32,000 bases of DNA from Candidatus Saccharimonadota bacterium (GTDB lineage Bacteria; Patescibacteriota; Gracilibacteria; UBA1369; 2-02-FULL-48-14): contig JBAZVE010000001.1 of the NCBI GenBank assembly GCA_041661045.1, forward strand, positions 360,001 through 392,000, written 5' to 3'. A program made the translations under genes and the position numbers. Under the pieces are notes generated by a model, which was not told the DNA's origin, ran no database searches, and saw only the letters and a program-made list of their open reading frames with translations. The first letter of the stretch is position 1. The number at the start of each line of letters is the position of its first letter. Positions 6,937 to 32,000 of the stretch are shown one piece after another.

Positions 6937-7395
6937 ATGGCTCGGATGAAGCATCCTGCACCAGATATTGCCGCTCTTCCCGCTGAGGATTCGAAGCGTT
7001 TTGTGGCGGTTTTGAATAAGAAAGTGGAAATTCCGCAGCTCATGAATGCGCTGGGGCATATGGCGGCGGGCACGGCAAGCCTTGTGGGGGCGGAGGATTT
7101 GTGTTTTTTGAACTACCCTGATAAGGAGGCCGGCGAGCACTTTGGTGCCTCACACTTCCCTTTTATTGTGCTGAAGGCTGAAAACTCCAATCAGATTCGA
7201 ACGGTGCGCGCGGAGGCGATGCGAAGAGGAATTCCGTTCAATGAATTCACCCGTGGGATGGTGCTGGGGACCGAGGGCGCGCTGGACGCGATGCGCGAAA
7301 GCAGCGAAGCGGATCTGGACTATTTTGGCATTTGCCTCTTTGGCGGTACCGAAGAACTCCGGGAGTTTACCGGGAAGTTTTCTTTGTTCCGCTAA
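6937..7395 (+). CDS. DUF2000 family protein
   Basis: 152 aa. The pattern KRFVAVLNKKVEIPQLMNALGHMAAG...HFPFIVLKAENSNQIRTVRAEAMRRGIPFNEFT...YFGICLFGGTEELREFTGKFSLFR follows the DUF2000 layout as I recall it. It starts 6 nt after the preceding stop, so it is probably co-transcribed. Confidence 0.55.
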   Translation: MARMKHPAPDIAALPAEDSKRFVAVLNKKVEIPQLMNALGHMAAGTASLVGAEDLCFLNYPDKEAGEHFGASHFPFIVLKAENSNQIRTVRAEAMRRGIPFNEFTRGMVLGTEGALDAMRESSEADLDYFGICLFGGTEELREFTGKFSLFR

Positions 7396-26122: not shown

Positions 26123-26761
26123 ATGAAGGATGGTAGTGGTGAAAATTCGGGTGAACGACAAGAAGATGAACAGAAGGTTCAAGCTTTCTGGGCACAAGTT
26201 CCTCAAGGTTATGCTCCTGATGCTAGTCGTACTCCAGCAGGTGAGGTTTTTTCTCACAATTTGATTAGTACTGGCGAGCACACTGAAATCCCCAATGATG
26301 ATGGTTTCCCGACATGGTTCACAAGAATTGCTGGCAAGTATGGTCATGAAAGTCACGTGCGAGATTCTGATGTATTTGGTCAAATCCTCGGGAACAAAGG
26401 AATTGAAAAAGTTGAGTATGATCCGAATGATCCTAGATTGCAGGCAATTCAGTTAAATCTAGAAAGCGGCATGCCTTTGGGTGAGTTTAAATTTGACCCC
26501 GGCATTTTACAGGTGACTGCCTACCAGCATCCTGATTGCATAAAAGGAGATCCCGTTTATTTGCTCGATACCACATCCGAGCACACCATTGATATAACCG
26601 GAGAGCAGGTTTTGGTTGTTGGTTGGGGGAGTTTGCCCTATGGAACATTTTTCCGTTGTTTTGTGCCAAGTCGAAATATGACTCTCGTGTGTGCCGTTCG
26701 TCCTAGTTCTGATGAAGTAGCTCGGGCTGTTATTCCAGCATCTTGGGTGGTTACACGATGA
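26123..26761 (+). CDS. Hypothetical protein (212 aa)
   Basis: Clean ATG ORF with an acidic N-terminus. No family recognised. Confidence 0.5.
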   Translation: MKDGSGENSGERQEDEQKVQAFWAQVPQGYAPDASRTPAGEVFSHNLISTGEHTEIPNDDGFPTWFTRIAGKYGHESHVRDSDVFGQILGNKGIEKVEYDPNDPRLQAIQLNLESGMPLGEFKFDPGILQVTAYQHPDCIKGDPVYLLDTTSEHTIDITGEQVLVVGWGSLPYGTFFRCFVPSRNMTLVCAVRPSSDEVARAVIPASWVVTR

Positions 26762-26823
26762 AACTCACCCTGACCGTAAGCACGCGCCTGGGACATTGAG
26801 AGAGTTTCACAAAAGAATTCCAT

Positions 26824-26852
26824 TTGCCTCTTGCGGCGTTTCAACCTATAAT
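26824..26852 (+). promoter_or_regulatory. Sigma70-type promoter for tRNA-Tyr
   Basis: TTGCCT (26824..26829), 17-nt spacer, TATAAT (26847..26852). It lies 21 nt upstream of the tRNA 5' end. Confidence 0.5.
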
Positions 26853-26873
26853 CCCCCTGCTCTTTTGCATAGT

Positions 26874-26958
26874 GGGCAGGTTCCAGAGTGGCCAAATGGG
26901 GCGGACTGTAAATCCGCTGGCTCTGCCTTCGAAGGTTCGAATCCTTCCCTGCCCACCA
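26874..26958 (+). tRNA. tRNA-Tyr (anticodon GUA), class II, CCA encoded
   Basis: GGGCAGG acceptor, GGCGGACTGTAAATCCGC anticodon arm, long variable arm, GGTTCGAATCC T-loop region, and CCTGCCC-A-CCA. Confidence 0.9.
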
Positions 26959-27001
26959 TACTGTGCTAAAGTTCCCCAGTCTCACCCTTAACTTTTTTGT
27001 C

Positions 27002-27523
27002 ATGAAAACGATGTTTACCCTGTTCCTTGGACTGGTGTTTTTGGCTGGGTGTAGTCTTCAAACGGCTTCGGCGGATCGGGCGGCGATCGAGGAAATGGTG
27101 CGGGATCATGCGTTGGCGTGGGAAACGGGGGATAGGGAGCTCTTGGATTCACTGCTGCATGAAGACAGCGTGTTTGCGTATCCGGGGCGGCGCTTGAATA
27201 AAGCGGAAACTTTGGAGGATCTCGACTATTTTGCGGCGAATTTTGTGGACACCAAGGTCTACATCAACACAATTATTGTGGAGGGAAATCAGGTGGCGGT
27301 GGAATGGCAGTTCGCTACCACCAGCACCGGGAGTGGGGCGCGGCAAGTGGTGAGTGATGCCATTATTGCGGAGGTGAAGGATGGCCAATTCATCGTGTGG
27401 AAAGAATATTTGGACGGGCGCGTGAAGACGCTCCAAGAGAGTGGCGAGCTTTATTTTGAAGAAGGCGAGGAGCCCTTTCCTTGGCCGATGAAAACAGATC
27501 TTTATGGCACGGTGAAGCAGTGA
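27002..27523 (+). CDS. SnoaL-like / NTF2-fold lipoprotein
   Basis: MKTMFTLFLGLVFLAGCS shows a signal peptide plus lipobox. AAIEEMVRDHALAWETGDRELLDSLLHEDSVFAYPG...VEGNQVAVEWQF...IVWKEYLD is typical of SnoaL/DUF4440-like domains. Confidence 0.65.
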   Translation: MKTMFTLFLGLVFLAGCSLQTASADRAAIEEMVRDHALAWETGDRELLDSLLHEDSVFAYPGRRLNKAETLEDLDYFAANFVDTKVYINTIIVEGNQVAVEWQFATTSTGSGARQVVSDAIIAEVKDGQFIVWKEYLDGRVKTLQESGELYFEEGEEPFPWPMKTDLYGTVKQ

Positions 27524-27543
27524 TATACTCCGCTGGCTTTCGG

Positions 27544-27619
27544 GCCATCTTAGCTCAGTTGGTAGAGCGGCGGTATCGTAAACCGCAGGTCACCGGTTCA
27601 ATTCCGGTAGATGGCTCCA
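27544..27619 (+). tRNA. tRNA-Thr (anticodon CGU), CCA encoded
   Basis: GCCATCT acceptor, TAGCTCAGTTGGTAGAGC D-arm, GCGGT-ATCGTAA-ACCGC anticodon arm, GGTTCAATTCC T-loop region, and AGATGGC-T-CCA. Confidence 0.9.
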
Positions 27620-27685: not shown

Positions 27686-27761
27686 GCCACTTTAGCTCAG
27701 CTGGTAGAGCAACGGTTTTGTAAACCGTGGGTCGTCGGTTCGATTCCGACAAGTGGCTCCA
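27686..27761 (+). tRNA. tRNA-Thr (anticodon UGU), CCA encoded
   Basis: GCCACTT acceptor, TAGCTCAGCTGGTAGAGC D-arm, ACGGT-TTTGTAA-ACCGT anticodon arm, GGTTCGATTCC T-loop region, and AAGTGGC-T-CCA. Confidence 0.9.
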
Positions 27762-27779
27762 TTTTTGGTTTGAACTTAT

Positions 27780-28199
27780 TTAACTCTGGGTTCCCTTAAC
27801 TGCTGCCTGCACACCCTCTGTAACGAGCGCGGTTTCATTGGATACAGGTCCTTTTGGCTTACTATAATCCATAATCTTCACCATAAGGTTGGCTACTAAT
27901 TCAGTTCTCACAGCATCTCCTGTTTCTTTCGGAGCCCTATCTAGGATTAACCTTAACAAGTCTGGTAATTCTTTACCTAAACGTTCTCTATCCATTTCGT
28001 AGAGAGCCATTATTTCCATTGCCAAATCTGATAAGGCCTTTTCTACAGCAACCGTGAGAGGATCATTTTTCTTCAAATCTCCTCCAGTTCTCCTTCTGGT
28101 TTCGTAGTTCCCCTTCTTTTGATTGGCCAGAGCCACCGCTAGACCATCTACCAAAGTACTAACATTCCTGTATCGTTCATTTACATTTAAGGGCTCCAT
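27780..28199 (-). CDS. Hypothetical protein (139 aa), cassette ORF adjacent to tRNA-Thr
   Basis: ATG ORF, predicted helical. The stop codon lies 19 nt from the tRNA-Thr 3' end. No family recognised. Confidence 0.5.
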   Translation of the reverse strand: MEPLNVNERYRNVSTLVDGLAVALANQKKGNYETRRRTGGDLKKNDPLTVAVEKALSDLAMEIMALYEMDRERLGKELPDLLRLILDRAPKETGDAVRTELVANLMVKIMDYSKPKGPVSNETALVTEGVQAAVKGTQS

Positions 28200-28310
28200 G
28201 GTTTAGTTGTTAATTTGTATGTTCATTGTACCACTTATTTGAAATAATGCAAGTATTGGGCGAGTAATTTACCACCTTATCCATCAAAGGAATATCCCTT
28301 ACCACTGCGG

Positions 28311-28395
28311 CAAAACCAGAAAATAAACATAAAATACGTTGGAAACAGTGTGCTTCCATTTTTTGGATGCCCAGGGGAGATGAAAGCAATTTTAT
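28311..28395 (+). repeat. Intergenic cassette repeat, copy A (most divergent, ~85% to the others)
   Basis: CAAAACCAGAAAATAAACATAAAATACGTTGGAAACAGTGTGCTTCCATTTTTTGGATGCCCAGGGGAGATGAAAGCAATTTTAT. Its right end covers the stop codon of the 423-aa gene. Confidence 0.85.
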
Positions 28396-29663
28396 CCTTG
28401 GTATTTTTCTGGTGTCCACCCCACTTGAGCTTGCAGTGCTCTTACTGTGCCTTCCCAGGAAAGGCGTCTACCCATTGGATCCAATAGCAGTGTTCTTCCG
28501 GCTATAGCAGTGAGTGGCAAGAGGGTCCGTGGATTTTGTCCATACTCCCAGTCTGGGCGTACACCAATGACGCGAGTGGATCCTTCTGGGGAGAAACGGG
28601 ATAAAGTCAGAAAACCATTTCCAGCTTGATCCGGGTGGACTAAAACACGACCTCCCTCTCTTTCAAGCTCCCATTCACCCACTTCACCATAGTCTCCTTC
28701 ATTGCTCGCACGGATTTCACTTTGCCGGCGGAGTAAAGCGGCGGTACGCAAATCCACTGCTTCATAAGGCAACATTGAGCTGAAAAAGAGCCGCTGAGCC
28801 GCATCTCCTCTCCATTCAGGAGCCAAGAATGGCCCATTTCTCCAGGCTTCCTGAAGATGGATGTCTGGCATACACTTAAAAAGCTCTCTTGCAATGGAAA
28901 CATGATCTTGTGGGCGTTGGTTGGAAACCAATAGGCCAATCAAAGCCCTGTGTGCACTGAGAACACTTTCACCCATTATGTGACCTCCCCAGTTTTTTGT
29001 TAGTTCCTTCAGCAAAAGCGCGTATTCAGCTAACCCTTGACCTAAATCTGCGTGGGTTTCATCAGAGTCTGTTGAGGGTAAGGTGGAGTCGTCACGCAAT
29101 CGAGACCACGCAAGCTCTCCTGCTGGGCCTACCCACGCATTGCTTACGTCGTGGCCACGGTGTGGGAGGGGCAAAACAGTAATGCGCCAACCCAAAAGCT
29201 GATTTCTTATGGACCTGTCCGCATCATTAAGATCCAATTGATCCATGTCATTCATGTCTCTTGATACAGCTGCATCGAGGTGACCTTTGGCTATAGCACT
29301 GGTGGCAGCTGCGCGTGTCTGGGGAGAGACAGTAGTCGCTTCCGTCTTGGCCCAAAGATTGTCGTCTCCTTCTACTACTAAGGGTCTTGTTAAGCATTTT
29401 TGGAGTCCCTCCATACTTATGACGGGGTCCATTACAATTCGAAAGGTCTCACTAAATTCTGTTCCGAGAACCTCGTCAGCAGTGTGTGAATCAGCCATGG
29501 CCACTGCGACTGCACTCAAATAGGGTGGCCTCACATTCCCCTCATCGAAAACTGCACGGGCCGCCCTATAAGCTCCAGTTCTATCCAAGCGGTCCTTTAC
29601 TTCAGGAATATCCATTAAGTGTATATAAGGCTTTATTCTAACCTTTTGAGTTCCTTGTTGCAA
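28392..29663 (-). CDS. Hypothetical protein (up to 423 aa), cassette ORF
   Basis: Long ORF. The track start is TTG at 29663, and the first ATG (MDIPEVKD) is at 29615. No family recognised. Confidence 0.55.
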   Translation of the reverse strand: MQQGTQKVRIKPYIHLMDIPEVKDRLDRTGAYRAARAVFDEGNVRPPYLSAVAVAMADSHTADEVLGTEFSETFRIVMDPVISMEGLQKCLTRPLVVEGDDNLWAKTEATTVSPQTRAAATSAIAKGHLDAAVSRDMNDMDQLDLNDADRSIRNQLLGWRITVLPLPHRGHDVSNAWVGPAGELAWSRLRDDSTLPSTDSDETHADLGQGLAEYALLLKELTKNWGGHIMGESVLSAHRALIGLLVSNQRPQDHVSIARELFKCMPDIHLQEAWRNGPFLAPEWRGDAAQRLFFSSMLPYEAVDLRTAALLRRQSEIRASNEGDYGEVGEWELEREGGRVLVHPDQAGNGFLTLSRFSPEGSTRVIGVRPDWEYGQNPRTLLPLTAIAGRTLLLDPMGRRLSWEGTVRALQAQVGWTPEKYQG

Positions 29664-29695
29664 CTTTATGAGAATTTACCCTGTAGTCCTACGGA

Positions 29696-29779
29696 AAAAC
29701 CCGAATACAAACATAAAATAAGTTGAAAACATTGTGCTTCCATTTTTGGGTTGTCCAGGGGAGATAAAAGAGATTTTAC
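29696..29779 (+). repeat. Intergenic cassette repeat, copy B
   Basis: AAAAACCCGAATACAAACATAAAATAAGTTGAAAACATTGTGCTTCCATTTTTGGGTTGTCCAGGGGAGATAAAAGAGATTTTA. The 60-nt core differs from copy D at one position. Confidence 0.9.
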
Positions 29780-29846
29780 GTTTCACCCTCGTTCGAGAGC
29801 AGAAAATAGACGCCACAAAGCAGGGCTGATTTTTAAGTCCAACTTC

Positions 29847-30131
29847 CTAAGACTGGCGCTGTCTTTCTAAAAATTGTCTCATGACCACTGCTCTTGTACC
29901 TTTCAGGGTATCGACAAATTCGTGTTCAACATGAATGCCACTTTGTGGGGTATGTGGACTTAGCTCTTGGCGGCTCCCTATGTACAACCATTCACCTCCT
30001 CGGGTTGTATTCAATGTCAGCGCTCCAAATAATTTCAGTCGAACTATATTTCTTACCACGTGACCCTCTAAATTGGGGATTTTAGTTTTCTGGCCCTTTA
30101 TTCGCTTTAAGTACGGCGTAACTTGCCTCAA
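29847..30131 (-). CDS. Hypothetical ORF (94 aa, TTG start only), possibly the 3' half of a frameshifted gene
   Basis: There is no ATG start. The frame opens only after a TAG near 30160. It overlaps the upstream ORF by 50 nt and is reachable from it by a +1 shift at a T5 run (plus-strand A5 at 30130..30134). Confidence 0.35.
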   Translation of the reverse strand: MRQVTPYLKRIKGQKTKIPNLEGHVVRNIVRLKLFGALTLNTTRGGEWLYIGSRQELSPHTPQSGIHVEHEFVDTLKGTRAVVMRQFLERQRQS

Positions 30132-30384
30132 AAATTGCTTCAGCTGGGGCTCTAAGTCTGTCTATTTGATTCAAGAAATCTGGTTCAAGAATTTGGAATC
30201 CATCTGGCGTAAGATTACCGTTCAACAACATTCCTACTGCAGCACGCTTTGCTTGAATAGGAAATGCATTCCAGTTTGCAGGTAGTTGCGCACCTTCTCC
30301 CTTTGCTAGATCAGCTAGTCCTTTTGCGTCTAGATGTTCAACTAGATCGCTTGGCATTAGTGGGCCTGATGGACCTTCATCCAT
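30082..30384 (-). CDS. Hypothetical protein (100 aa), cassette ORF, possibly the 5' half of a split gene
   Basis: ATG ORF (MDEGPSGPLMPSDLVEHLD...). Its 3' end overlaps ORF 29847..30131. Confidence 0.45.
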   Translation of the reverse strand: MDEGPSGPLMPSDLVEHLDAKGLADLAKGEGAQLPANWNAFPIQAKRAAVGMLLNGNLTPDGFQILEPDFLNQIDRLRAPAEAIFEASYAVLKANKGPEN

Positions 30385-30485
30385 AGTATTGTGGGAAGAT
30401 TATTATCTGCTTATTCTACCATCAAACATAGTTTCTTCCAATATCTTTCTTGGTATGCATAAAGGGAAAGCCCCTCTCCTGGCGA

Positions 30486-30539
30486 CAAAACCCGAACACG
30501 AACATAAAATAAGTTGAAAGCATTGTGCTTCCATTTTTG
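30486..30539 (+). repeat. Intergenic cassette repeat, copy C (right part missing)
   Basis: CAAAACCCGAACACGAACATAAAATAAGTTGAAAGCATTGTGCTTCCATTTTTG. It is identical to copy D over the 40 nt GAACATAAAAT...CCATTTTTG and diverges after that. Confidence 0.85.
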
Positions 30540-30731
30540 TTTGAGGCATTTGTTCATTGGCTAGGCGTATTGGTATTCCTTACTACTCTTGGCTTCACCT
30601 ACACCCACCCATACGTACAGCTAGGGGTCGATTTGGGATGCCCTGCCCCTGCGATTATAGGCGCACATAACATAACTTGTAGTATCTTTAATGGTTTGAT
30701 ATAGTGCATCCTTAAACTTAAAAATGTTCTT

Positions 30732-31469
30732 ATGAGACCTGGCGAATCACAAACTTATGTTGACCAACTGACCCAAGGGGAACTTCGTGATTACCCAGGA
30801 ATGTTGCGGCGAGTACTCAGCCTTGTGGAGAAACCTCTGTCAACATTATTGGAAGCAAGTGCAGAAGTTAAAGCTGCAAACACGACAGTACAAAGCGCAC
30901 TTGATTGCTTAAGTTTAGATGACCGTGCAACATTTGATACAAAGATTGTGCCACCTGAGAAGATGGGGAGATTTTCTGTCCAGTATAGAAACCCGATGAA
31001 AATTTCTGCTAGAGCAGGTGATTCATTGGCTCTGCGAGCTGCTGTCCTTGCTTCCATTGATGAGATTGTTGCAGTCTTTCACCAGAGACGAGACGGAGTC
31101 TTGGCGCATGCTAGGTTTCAAGGAGAAGATCAAAAAGATACCCATGGACACACGGTCATCGCGGCACCGTTTCTTTTGTTGGATGTTGGTGGCCAAAATG
31201 GCTCTTTCCCACTTGAACTCGTACAAGCCTCGACACCCTTACATGTACAAACGCTTCCAGCACAATCCCATTTTGATAGAAGGTTTGCTGAAATGTCCTT
31301 CAGTCTTGATCGTTCACGTAATCCTAGCGCTACTGTACCTAAATCCTTCCTTGAGGGGGTCCGGGGGAGTGACAAACATGCGATGCCTCATATGCGTCGT
31401 ACTGATGGAAACGTTTTTGAACTGGCGCGCAATCTACTTTCTCGACTAGGTGGTGAAGTCATTGAATGA
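30732..31469 (+). CDS. Hypothetical protein (245 aa), the only plus-strand ORF in the cassette region
   Basis: ATG ORF bounded by repeat copies C and D. No family recognised. Confidence 0.5.
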   Translation: MRPGESQTYVDQLTQGELRDYPGMLRRVLSLVEKPLSTLLEASAEVKAANTTVQSALDCLSLDDRATFDTKIVPPEKMGRFSVQYRNPMKISARAGDSLALRAAVLASIDEIVAVFHQRRDGVLAHARFQGEDQKDTHGHTVIAAPFLLLDVGGQNGSFPLELVQASTPLHVQTLPAQSHFDRRFAEMSFSLDRSRNPSATVPKSFLEGVRGSDKHAMPHMRRTDGNVFELARNLLSRLGGEVIE

Positions 31470-31497
31470 GGTTTAGTGTAGCTTTAGCTTATTCGTG

Positions 31498-31567
31498 AAC
31501 ATAAAATAAGTTGAAAGCATTGTGCTTCCATTTTTGGGTTGTCCAGGGGAGATAAAATGGGTTTTAT
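31498..31567 (+). repeat. Intergenic cassette repeat, copy D
   Basis: GAACATAAAATAAGTTGAAAGCATTGTGCTTCCATTTTTGGGTTGTCCAGGGGAGATAAAATGGGTTTTAT. Its right end covers the stop codon (31564..31566) of the next minus-strand ORF. Confidence 0.9.
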
Positions 31568-32000
31568 TCCTCTTCTTGCTCAAGTTTTGAGAAGTAATGC
31601 TTCAGTTTTGGTTGAAGGAAGGCATCAATTTGAGCTTCGAATTGGGCGACACACATGGAGAGATGGTTTTTAAGCTTGTTCAGTCGCCATCGCTGGATTG
31701 CGCCTTTCTCTTCAGAGGGAGAGCCGACGAGGCTGCTTATATTTCCCGCTAAACTGAAGCATGTTTTTGCAAGACTTGGGGCATCTTCTCCTGCAAAATA
31801 TGGAGACTGAATTAGTGCTTGCAATGAGGAGTGTGAATGTCGGGCTAGCTCAATATTATTAAATGCTAGTAAACCTTCGATTTCTGACAAAGTAACATTG
31901 CAGATGCTGCTGAGCTCCATCGCCTGTTTGACAGTGGCGTTGAGTTCATCCAAAGATTCGAGCAGAAAACTGCTTTTTATTGCATCCTCTAAGTCCCTCA
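31564..32000 (-). CDS. Hypothetical helical protein, N-terminus probably beyond the window
   Basis: The track ORF starts at TTG 31953. Hand translation shows the frame stays open to position 31998 (…RDLEDAIKSSFLLESLDELNATV…), so the gene likely continues upstream. Confidence 0.5.
   Translation of the reverse strand, partial: RDLEDAIKSSFLLESLDELNATVKQAMELSSICNVTLSEIEGLLAFNNIELARHSHSSLQALIQSPYFAGEDAPSLAKTCFSLAGNISSLVGSPSEEKGAIQRWRLNKLKNHLSMCVAQFEAQIDAFLQPKLKHYFSKLEQEEE

Follow-up and report, generated by a model that had tools for sequence, protein, structure and literature searches.

A tandem array of probable integrase-less single-gene cassettes at the 3' end of a tRNA-Thr(UGU) gene in a Patescibacteria genome

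Analysis of a 32,000-nucleotide stretch of the Candidatus Saccharimonadota bacterium genome (Patescibacteriota, Gracilibacteria; assembly GCA_041661045.1, contig JBAZVE010000001.1, positions 360,001 to 392,000; the whole stretch is referred to as the window) revealed a row of unrelated ORFan genes that starts directly at a tRNA-Thr(UGU) gene and is punctuated by a conserved repeat. The row is probably a tandem array of integrase-less single-gene mobile cassettes inserted site-specifically at the 3' end of this tRNA gene, an interpretation built on the comparison of sequences. Several features characterize the array: (i) a common anatomy of the repeat copies, (ii) the presence of empty sites in related genomes, (iii) one site per cassette, (iv) a regular pattern of junctions, and (v) conservation of the site across genomes. 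The candidate phyla radiation (CPR), or Patescibacteria, have very small genomes in which few mobile elements have been recognised, and their acquisition and exchange of accessory genes are poorly understood. If our interpretation is correct, the array represents a concrete and testable route of gene flow in this lineage, serviced in trans, anchored at a tRNA gene, and using a site that is conserved across genera. No description of such an array was found in the literature.

The window contains two tRNA-Thr genes on the plus strand, one with the CGU anticodon (27544-27619) and one with the UGU anticodon (27686-27761), both identified by ARAGORN and Rfam. The latter gene scores 72.5 bits and is kept intact; its alignment with the repeat copies suggests that it is the integration target, i.e., the former attB site that now serves as attL. 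Foreign DNA begins straight after the CCA-TTTTT end of tRNA-Thr(UGU), and the sequence is modular from this point. The remaining 27 kb of the window are ordinary chromosome encoding iPGM, MsrB, a DEAD-box helicase, UvrD, MurA, an S41 protease, and other proteins.

A single repeat family (D1) was detected by the repeat finder downstream of the tRNA, with four direct copies, all on the plus strand and all between unrelated ORFans, in agreement with the preliminary description of this DNA. The repeat unit is larger than the 55-85 bp proposed there. Its anatomy was deduced from an alignment that combined the four copies of the window with four found in other genomes (related loci are designated below by L and a number). 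The repeat is composite and consists of a 78-nt left arm (P arm), the last 9 nt of which constitute an overlap (O) with the tRNA end, and, in copies A, B, and D, a 31-nt right arm (P' arm). Copy A (28286-28394) includes a P arm at 28286-28363 and a P' arm at 28364-28394, and copy B (29670-29778) has its arms at 29670-29747 and 29748-29778, respectively. Copy C (30461-30538) is a P arm only, and copy D (31497-31566) combines a short P arm restricted to the core (31497-31535) with a P' arm at 31536-31566. The truncation that had been noted for one copy affects two of them in different ways, copy C being devoid of the right arm and copy D of the outer 40 nt of the left arm. The previously reported identities, one mismatch per 60 positions between B and D and 40/40 between C and D, are correct.

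The inner part of the P arm is more conserved than the outer part. The 38-nt core AACATAAAATAAGTTGAAAGCATTGTGCTTCCATTTTT occurs three times in the window at no more than 3 mismatches, compared with no occurrences in 100 shuffles; the core of copy A has 4 mismatches. Among all eight copies, which come from four genomes, the inner 38 nt are 84-100% identical, and the outer 40 nt are 50-85% identical, with the exception of copy D that lacks them. The P-arm consensus is GGAAnnCTGCTTC...AAAACCC...AACATAAAATAAGTTGAAArCATTGTGCT. The outer arm of copy A is most similar to that of L004 (80% identity, versus 36-65% with its neighbours in the window), and therefore the copies are not products of local duplication. 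The core retains 84-100% identity between genomes whose murB identity is about 68% at the DNA level and about 60-75% at the protein level and whose G+C content differs (40% versus 48%), which points either to a recent spread of the site or to a strong constraint on it. The possibility that the P arm is a decayed half of a tRNA was rejected, since outside the overlap the local alignment score of the arm is no better than that of shuffled sequences.

The overlap O (TCCATTTTT, 9 nt) is found in all window copies (at 28355-28363 in copy A) and at the tRNA end (27758-27766), where it corresponds to the discriminator base T, the CCA, and the T-run of tRNA-Thr(UGU). The copy in L013 ends with GTGGCTCCATTTTT, which is identical to the tRNA end at 14/14 positions. 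In copies A, B, and D, the P' arm is one and the same 31-nt sequence (GGrTGyCCAGGGGAGATrAAA-N4-TTTTA). In copies A and D, the minus-strand gene next to the repeat has the terminal TTA of this arm as its stop codon, and past this base the sequences following A, B, and D are unrelated. Copy C and the copies from other genomes are followed by different right-hand sequences.

Five cassettes can be delineated in the array, and the coordinates of their open reading frames (ORFs) are as described previously. Cassette 1 (27767-28363) includes a short right arm starting with GG (27767-27779), ORF139 on the minus strand (27780-28199), and the P arm of copy A; approximately 40 nt upstream of ORF139, a TTGCAT-17-TACAAT-like promoter was recognized by eye. 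Cassette 2 (28364-29747) includes a P' arm, the TTA of which (28392-28394) is the stop codon of the minus-strand gene ORF407/423 (28392-29663), followed by the P arm of copy B. Cassette 3 (29748-30538) begins with the P' arm at 29748-29778, carries two overlapping minus-strand ORFs of 94 and 100 amino acids (29847-30131 and 30082-30384), and ends with the P arm of copy C. The gene in cassette 3 has probably suffered two frameshifts, to judge from these overlapping frames, and would be either a pseudogene or an assembly error. Cassette 4 (30539-31535) includes ORF245 in the opposite orientation (30732-31469, plus strand), with an unrelated right arm starting with GTTTGAGG and the P arm of copy D; here the P arm of copy C lies 190 nt upstream of ORF245 and contains a promoter-like GCGACA-17-TAAAAT site. 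Cassette 5, cut by the window end (31536-32000), includes a P' arm and the minus-strand ORF129 (31564-31953), for which TTA 31564-31566 is the stop codon, and its P arm is expected beyond position 32000. ORF129 is complete within 31564-31953, rather than running past the window end as had been thought, and its product has no record in the contig index. The earlier statement that the stop codon lies in or at the repeat for three minus-strand genes is confirmed for the genes with their stop codons at 28392 and 31564; the stop codon of 29847-30384 is 68 nt away from the repeat. An additional 18-codon frame in cassette 3 stops on the TAA of the P' arm (29776-29778).

No match was found for the six cassette ORFs in Pfam, NCBIfam, PADLOC, or PHROGs, and the cassette proteins are unrelated to one another within and between genomes, which agrees with the initial impression that they belong to no known family. 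ORF407 and ORF139 matched only themselves among 5.8 billion proteins, and no real relative of ORF245 was found among 1.84 billion cluster representatives. The single-sequence AlphaFold2 models of ORF407 and ORF245 were unusable (pLDDT of 34 and 36, respectively). The units from all genomes are 0.6-1.5 kb long, those of the window array 0.6-1.4 kb, and they mostly contain one intact ORF with its own start region. A single P' arm sequence borders unrelated ORFans, whose stop codons fall on the identical base in copies A and D, and the gaps between the genes are too short to conceal integrase remnants.

The site was then sought in other genomes. A scan for the exact pattern in one genome per species (185,579 species) yielded two matches, one per genome (L003 and L004), both in metagenome-assembled genomes (MAGs) of Peregrinibacteria/Peribacteria. 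In metagenomes, the scan produced two chance matches in unrelated AT-rich coding DNA. The repeat was absent from viral, phage, and plasmid collections (three viral scans, phage and plasmid BLAST searches), window positions 1-28285 contain no copy, and in the related loci, about 200 kb in total, none was detected except between tRNA-Thr and murB. A repeat scattered over the genome or a locus invariant among relatives had been named at the outset as observations that would speak against cassettes. Neither was seen: two MAGs contain one exact match per genome, and the relatives include both empty and occupied sites.

The copies in L003 and L004 are located just upstream of murB, and MurB homologues were therefore used as anchors to fetch the corresponding interval from relatives. 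The window is syntenic with L009 and L010, which share with it the genes for UvrD, a fn3 protein, Lactamase_B, and murA. In these two loci, tRNA-Thr(UGU) has its own terminator hairpin (CCATTTTTAATGGAGACGCCCAAGCGGGCTCCATTTTGAC), beyond which lie one gene encoding a 168-aa protein and then murB, and the repeat is missing. The site is also empty in L019, where murB starts 30 nt after the tRNA; among the MurB proteins, that of L019 is most similar to the one encoded by the window genome (about 79%). In L020 and L022, the interval contains other genes and no repeat.

Occupied sites are represented by several arrangements. In L013 (a 1.3-Mb contig), the tRNA is followed by one ORF, one P arm with the overlap, genes common with L020, and murB; the cassette ORF shows a weak SLOG-like match. 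The L004 locus includes the tRNA, two ORFs, one P arm with the overlap, one gene, and murB. In L003, L007, and L008, the order is P arm, ORF422, second P arm, 170-nt segment, 21-nt tRNA-Thr 3' fragment, one gene, and murB, and the 8.7 kb upstream contain no tRNA. Thus, loci devoid of an insert are also devoid of the repeat, and the count of P arms follows that of the inserts.

A degenerate version of the array was observed in L015 (5866-10000), where a 4-kb island at the same tRNA contains three degenerate P arms (nhmmer E values of 2e-4 to 0.02) and a displaced tRNA 3' fragment; the same context recurs in 18 other assemblies. This island is older and apparently fixed. Its cargo includes a YoeB/Phd toxin-antitoxin pair and a glyoxalase/bleomycin-resistance (Ble)-like gene; toxin-antitoxin and glyoxalase/bleomycin-resistance-like genes are typical cargo of integron cassettes. 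The 21-nt tRNA-Thr fragment is found in both L007 and L015. In L003 and L007, it was at first taken for a tRNA-Thr(CGU) fragment and was re-assigned as a 21-nt match to the 3' end of an L015-type tRNA-Thr(UGU). The 170-nt segment of L007 (8742-8909, equivalent to L003 510-677), located between the last P arm and the tRNA-Thr 3' fragment ACTCTGGTAGATGGCTCCATT, starts with the left half of the native terminator (AATGGAGCC), is G+C-rich within a genome of about 40% G+C, and has no Rfam match. It could be a structured RNA or another type of insert.

When all junctions were aligned on CCATTTTT, a simple rule emerged. GG stands directly after the occupied tRNAs (the window and L013) and after the internal copies (A, B, and D of the window and the first copy of L007), and AA follows the last copy of an array (the second copy of L007, L013, and L004). 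The second L007 copy is followed by AATGGAG, the sequence that natively flanks the tRNA at the empty L009 site. This pattern is predicted by repeated integration of P-O-P' circles into a tRNA-O-flank target, which yields tRNA-O-P' at attL, P-O-P' internally, and P-O-flank at attR. The tRNA has GTGGC where most P arms have GTGCT, and the distinguishing dinucleotide remains with its own side, which would place the exchange inside TCCATTTTT. Copy C of the window is followed by GTTTGAGG and does not neatly fit the junction rule.

The empty sites, the single repeat per cassette, the junctions of attL, attP, and attR type, and the 9-14-nt overlap support the original proposal that the spacers are tRNA-anchored recombination sites or cassette boundaries, with the catalytic partner located elsewhere. 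According to the model we favor, the cassette would be the moving unit and would carry its own attachment site composed of a P arm, the overlap TCCATTTTT, and a variable P' arm beginning with GG. Strand exchange within the overlap would leave the tRNA intact. The newest cassette would be located next to the tRNA, and the older ones, together with the native downstream flank, would be pushed outward, resulting in an array of the form tRNA-O-P'[gene]P-O-P'[gene]P-O-...-P-O-native flank. In the window genome, the last copy of the array would be expected before AATGGAG...GCTCCATTTT, followed by murB. Any present-day activity of the array would depend on a recombinase encoded outside it and acting in trans, for which the chromosomal Xer family is the sole candidate type that was seen. 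Conservative site-specific recombination by a tyrosine recombinase in trans would be the most likely mechanism. The overlap is short and is flanked by a CCA...TGG dyad symmetry. This symmetry is visible as CTCCATT-TTT-AATGGAG in the empty site and as GTGCTTCCA-TTTTT-TGGATGCCC in copy A.

The sole recombinase seen near any copy of the repeat is a 289-aa Xer-family tyrosine recombinase in L007, 5 kb from the P arms, with no link to the site. It belongs to a cluster (L007 1-2038) in which a LexA-like repressor, a ThsB-type TIR protein, and the Xer-family recombinase occur together; the cluster could be a separate defence island. By eye, AACATAA/TTATGTT in the P arm resembles the inner XerD half-site of dif, and the partner arm and the spacing do not fit the 11-6-11 arrangement. 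A relation of the locus to dif or the replication terminus is doubtful: the GC skew tracks gene orientation and is uninformative, and the fit of the motif is partial.

Several observations weigh against the cassette interpretation. A recombinase was found neither in the window (Pfam analysis of 36 window ORFs and a tblastn search with an Xer-type recombinase), in agreement with the preliminary description, nor in any cassette or related island. At 9-14 nt, the overlap with the tRNA is shorter than typical displaced tRNA fragments. The P' arm is conserved in the window only, and intact sites occur in only four lineages. The tRNA junction of L004 (CCATTTGACT) does not have the expected GG arm; its sequence suggests that DNA was lost by deletion from the tRNA end up to GGCTCCA of the terminator. 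No gain or loss of a cassette was seen between near-identical strains, the L015 context being the same in the 18 other assemblies. Finally, no cassette gene is common to two genomes, and no cassette was caught in two places.

The same locus could instead have arisen by decay, the units being integrase-stripped remnants of larger elements, such as a prophage, an integrative and mobilizable element (IME), or an element resembling an integrative and conjugative element (ICE), that accreted at the tRNA, were trimmed by deletion in a streamlined genome while both att ends persisted, would never have moved as single-gene cassettes, and may now be immobile. Such units would be cis-mobilizable elements (CIMEs). 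In streptococci, integrase-less CIMEs are known to accrete in tandem with ICEs and IMEs at the 3' ends of tRNA genes (PMC5704250), and tandem accretion followed by decay is a documented route to integrase-less, att-flanked units at tRNA 3' ends (PMC5704250; bioRxiv 10.1101/2020.12.28.424599). The decayed P arms and the displaced tRNA 3' fragment of L015, whose island is invariant among samples, are in line with this scenario, as are the resemblance of cassette 3 to a pseudogene and the 16-nt duplicate of a tRNA-Ser 3' end (1595-1610), which points to other tRNA-targeted events in this genome. The array also resembles CIMEs in the intact tRNA 3' end, the tandem units, the reiterated att sites, the absence of integration genes, and the presumed recourse to a recombinase in trans. 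However, CIMEs span several kb, derive by decay from ICEs or IMEs that can be identified, and lie beside a functional integrase-encoding partner, whereas the units described here are single-ORFan units of 0.6-1.5 kb with an arm conserved across CPR genera. No parent element or integrase was found in any of ten loci, and the eight units from four genomes show no trace of an integrase or a backbone gene; most of them consist of one intact ORF with its own start region, and their sizes fall within a narrow range (0.6-1.5 kb). Moreover, the same 31-nt P' arm borders three unrelated genes, with a sharp divergence at the stop codon, a result that random deletions would not yield three times over. 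On these grounds, we regard origin by decay as a serious but rather unlikely rival.

The fold of the P arm bears on a second explanation, in which the repeat is a terminator/promoter insulator that accompanies accessory genes, and the genes of the plastic murA-murB interval are swapped by DNA uptake and homologous recombination anchored at the tRNA and the repeat, with no dedicated recombinase. A small minus-strand hairpin, UGGAAGCA-CAA-UGyUUyCA followed by ACUUAUUUUAU, is found inside every P arm (28339-28359, and approximately 29723-29743, 30514-30534, and 31511-31531). On the minus strand, 98.4% of alignment cells pair, with only one-sided G-U/G-C changes and no compensatory change, and on the plus strand two positions would be A.C mismatches. 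A U-rich tract follows the minus-strand hairpin, which was flagged as terminator-like in 3/4 window copies. The one-sided changes, taken from the alignment, would neither prove nor exclude a role of the hairpin at the RNA level. The TAAAAT motif is invariant in the P arm and in several copies is part of the promoter-like GCGACA-17-TAAAAT site, which faces away from the tRNA. In the cassette model as well, the P arm may double as a transcriptional insulator that combines a minus-strand terminator-like hairpin with the plus-strand TAAAAT promoter-like element.

Good pairing of the hairpin on the minus strand only, the U-rich tract after it, and the invariant TAAAAT with GCGACA-17-TAAAAT upstream of plus-strand genes in some copies are what a regulatory module would display. 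Other tRNA flanks contain insertions without the repeat (the SnoaL gene after tRNA-Tyr and the L004 gene between the tRNA-Thr genes), and no recombinase is in view, which also speaks for this explanation. Nevertheless, we find it improbable. No minus-strand gene runs into copy C or the L004 copy, which leaves no terminator role there, and for the same reason, together with the lack of an Rfam match, a known RNA family or a plain intrinsic terminator was rejected. The conservation of 78 nt, with a 38-nt core at 84-100% across genera, exceeds what a terminator needs. Neither the precise fusion to CCA-TTTTT nor the GG/AA rule is accounted for by homologous recombination, and the repeat is missing at the empty sites and hence is not an ancestral anchor. 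The GCGACA-17-TAAAAT sites (window 30482-30510, plus strand; L007 about 7160-7190) precede the plus-strand genes ORF245 and L007 ORF422 by 170-190 nt. If the cassette were circular, the P arm belonging to it, with the promoter-like site, would lie upstream of such a gene.

A dispersed repeat similar to repetitive extragenic palindromes (REP) or miniature inverted-repeat transposable elements (MITE), or else a small gene, either a small RNA (sRNA) or a short ORF, that accumulated at this place is very unlikely. A short minus-strand ORF (MEAQCFQLILC...) with a variable tail is present in every P arm, starting from an ATG complementary to the overlap, at 28210-28359, 30403-30534, and 31490-31531 of the window and also in L004, L007, and L013; it results in spurious 'protein' similarity between loci. 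The presence of this ATG-initiated ORF in every copy, with the first 11-16 codons conserved, and of the small hairpin would suit a small gene. Yet the repeat has no match in Rfam (E values up to 10), no Shine-Dalgarno-like sequence precedes the ATG, the substitutions are mostly non-synonymous, and the flank needed for a minus-strand promoter is not conserved. The ORF is doubtful as a gene, having no ribosome-binding site and no clear sign of purifying selection. As for a dispersed repeat, there is one copy per genome in two MAGs, and the copies are confined to the tRNA-Thr to murB interval; the many scattered copies typical of REP and MITE elements were not observed in the scanned species genomes, the window, or the related loci. 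A marine picocyanobacterial sRNA (Yfr), considered because of the composition of the repeat, was dropped as well, as there is no Rfam match and the only DNA matches are Peregrinibacteria MAGs.

The earlier analogy with an integron cassette array lacking its integrase, i.e., a cluster of attC sites lacking integron integrases (CALIN) with the repeats as attC sites, is extremely improbable despite a layout in which unrelated ORFs stand singly, mostly on one strand, each with a conserved site at or on its stop codon and no integrase nearby, since (i) the aligned copies contain no R''(RYYYAAC)...R'(GTTRRRY) ends at attC spacing, their sole AAC...GTT pair being 9 nt apart, with GTTGAAA ending in A rather than Y and no second inverted pair, (ii) the single-stranded DNA folds of three 115-nt sites on both strands are no better than those of shuffled sequences (z-scores of -1.29 to +2.05), (iii) it is the sequence rather than the structure that is conserved, (iv) the site overlaps the end of a tRNA, and promoters of their own seem to be present in the cassettes, and (v) no IntI was found in the 32-kb window or the related islands. 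A genuine attC site is an imperfect palindrome of 57-141 bp with the organization R''(RYYYAAC)-L''...L'-R'(GTTRRRY), one strand of which forms a stable hairpin that is better conserved as a structure than as a sequence, and no such R''/L''-L'/R' palindrome is present here.

The array of integrase-less cassettes is nevertheless similar to integrons and CALINs in its fixed entry point, its unrelated single-gene cassettes, the presence of one site at the 3' end of each gene, and the position of the presumably newest cassette nearest to the entry point. It differs in having a linear conserved site, a tRNA entry instead of attI/intI, mixed gene orientation, and seemingly own promoters. A comparison with tRNA-targeting islands with reiterated att sites, also suggested in the preliminary description, fits better. 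As in other islands at tRNA genes (tDNA islands), the insertion is at an intact tRNA 3' end, the tRNA end is directly repeated, and empty sites exist in relatives; a cognate integrase, which such islands have in at least one unit or a neighbouring element, was not found in any visible unit. Successive integrations are described for the Prochlorococcus tycheposons and other tDNA islands (bioRxiv 10.1101/2020.12.28.424599; Islander, PMC4383910). Tycheposons likewise inhabit streamlined genomes and form tRNA-proximal hypervariable islands in which older material is pushed out and partial tRNA repeats are left. In contrast to the present array, they encode their own tyrosine recombinase and replication genes and span several kb or more, and their repeats are tRNA fragments, whereas here only 9-14 nt are derived from the tRNA and the conserved part is a non-tRNA 78-nt arm.

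Integrative mobile elements exploiting Xer (IMEXs) and the pdif modules of Acinetobacter plasmids are devoid of a recombinase, are bounded by short conserved sites, use the housekeeping tyrosine recombinase of the host, and can be arranged in tandem. Their sites are 28-nt mimics of dif that are located at dif or on plasmids. The target in our case is a tRNA end, and no convincing 11-6-11 dif-like motif was recognized by eye. Unusual for tandem site-specific accretion at a tRNA gene are the single-ORFan units, the long non-tRNA arm conserved across CPR genera, the embedded stop codon, and the absence of a recombinase in cis in all loci seen.

A broader proposal, which we advance tentatively, is that the array exemplifies a gene-capture platform of Peregrinibacteria-type CPR, integron-like in its logic and built from different parts: an entry at tRNA-Thr(UGU), a linear 38-78-nt site, and a chromosomal recombinase encoded elsewhere, possibly a housekeeping Xer-family enzyme. 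Such a platform would give organisms with 1.3-Mb genomes access to a shared cross-genus pool of ORFan accessory genes and would constitute a second, independently evolved solution to the problem solved by integrons. It also bears on the question of how unrelated genes become joined to one recombination site, given that here the site meets the ORFans exactly at the stop codon. The 38-nt core is a ready probe for cassettes in metagenomes.

The murA-murB interval is plastic throughout (window 26123-27543). A SnoaL-like gene (26963-27523) lies between tRNA-Tyr and tRNA-Thr(CGU), tRNAs that are 30 nt apart in L009 and L010; in L013, two other genes occupy this position, and L004 has an extra gene between its two tRNA-Thr genes. 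The ORF at 26123-26761 has no counterpart in any related locus. All these inserts lack the P-arm repeat.

At the other end of the window, the last 16 nt of tRNA-Ser(UGA), CCCTCTCTCTCCGCCA (1489-1504), are exactly duplicated at 1595-1610, 91 nt downstream of the tRNA. The duplicate looks like an att scar left by another tRNA-targeted integration or excision, and its sequence is unrelated to the tRNA-Thr repeat. Finally, Logan unitigs of SRR18595301 that match the array (L002, equivalent to window 27710-29733, and L001, equivalent to 30510-31526) break within the P arms of copies B, C, and D, as any repeat would cause. The break in arm B, the core of which has a private base, hints at additional B-like copies in the sample, for example, past position 32000.

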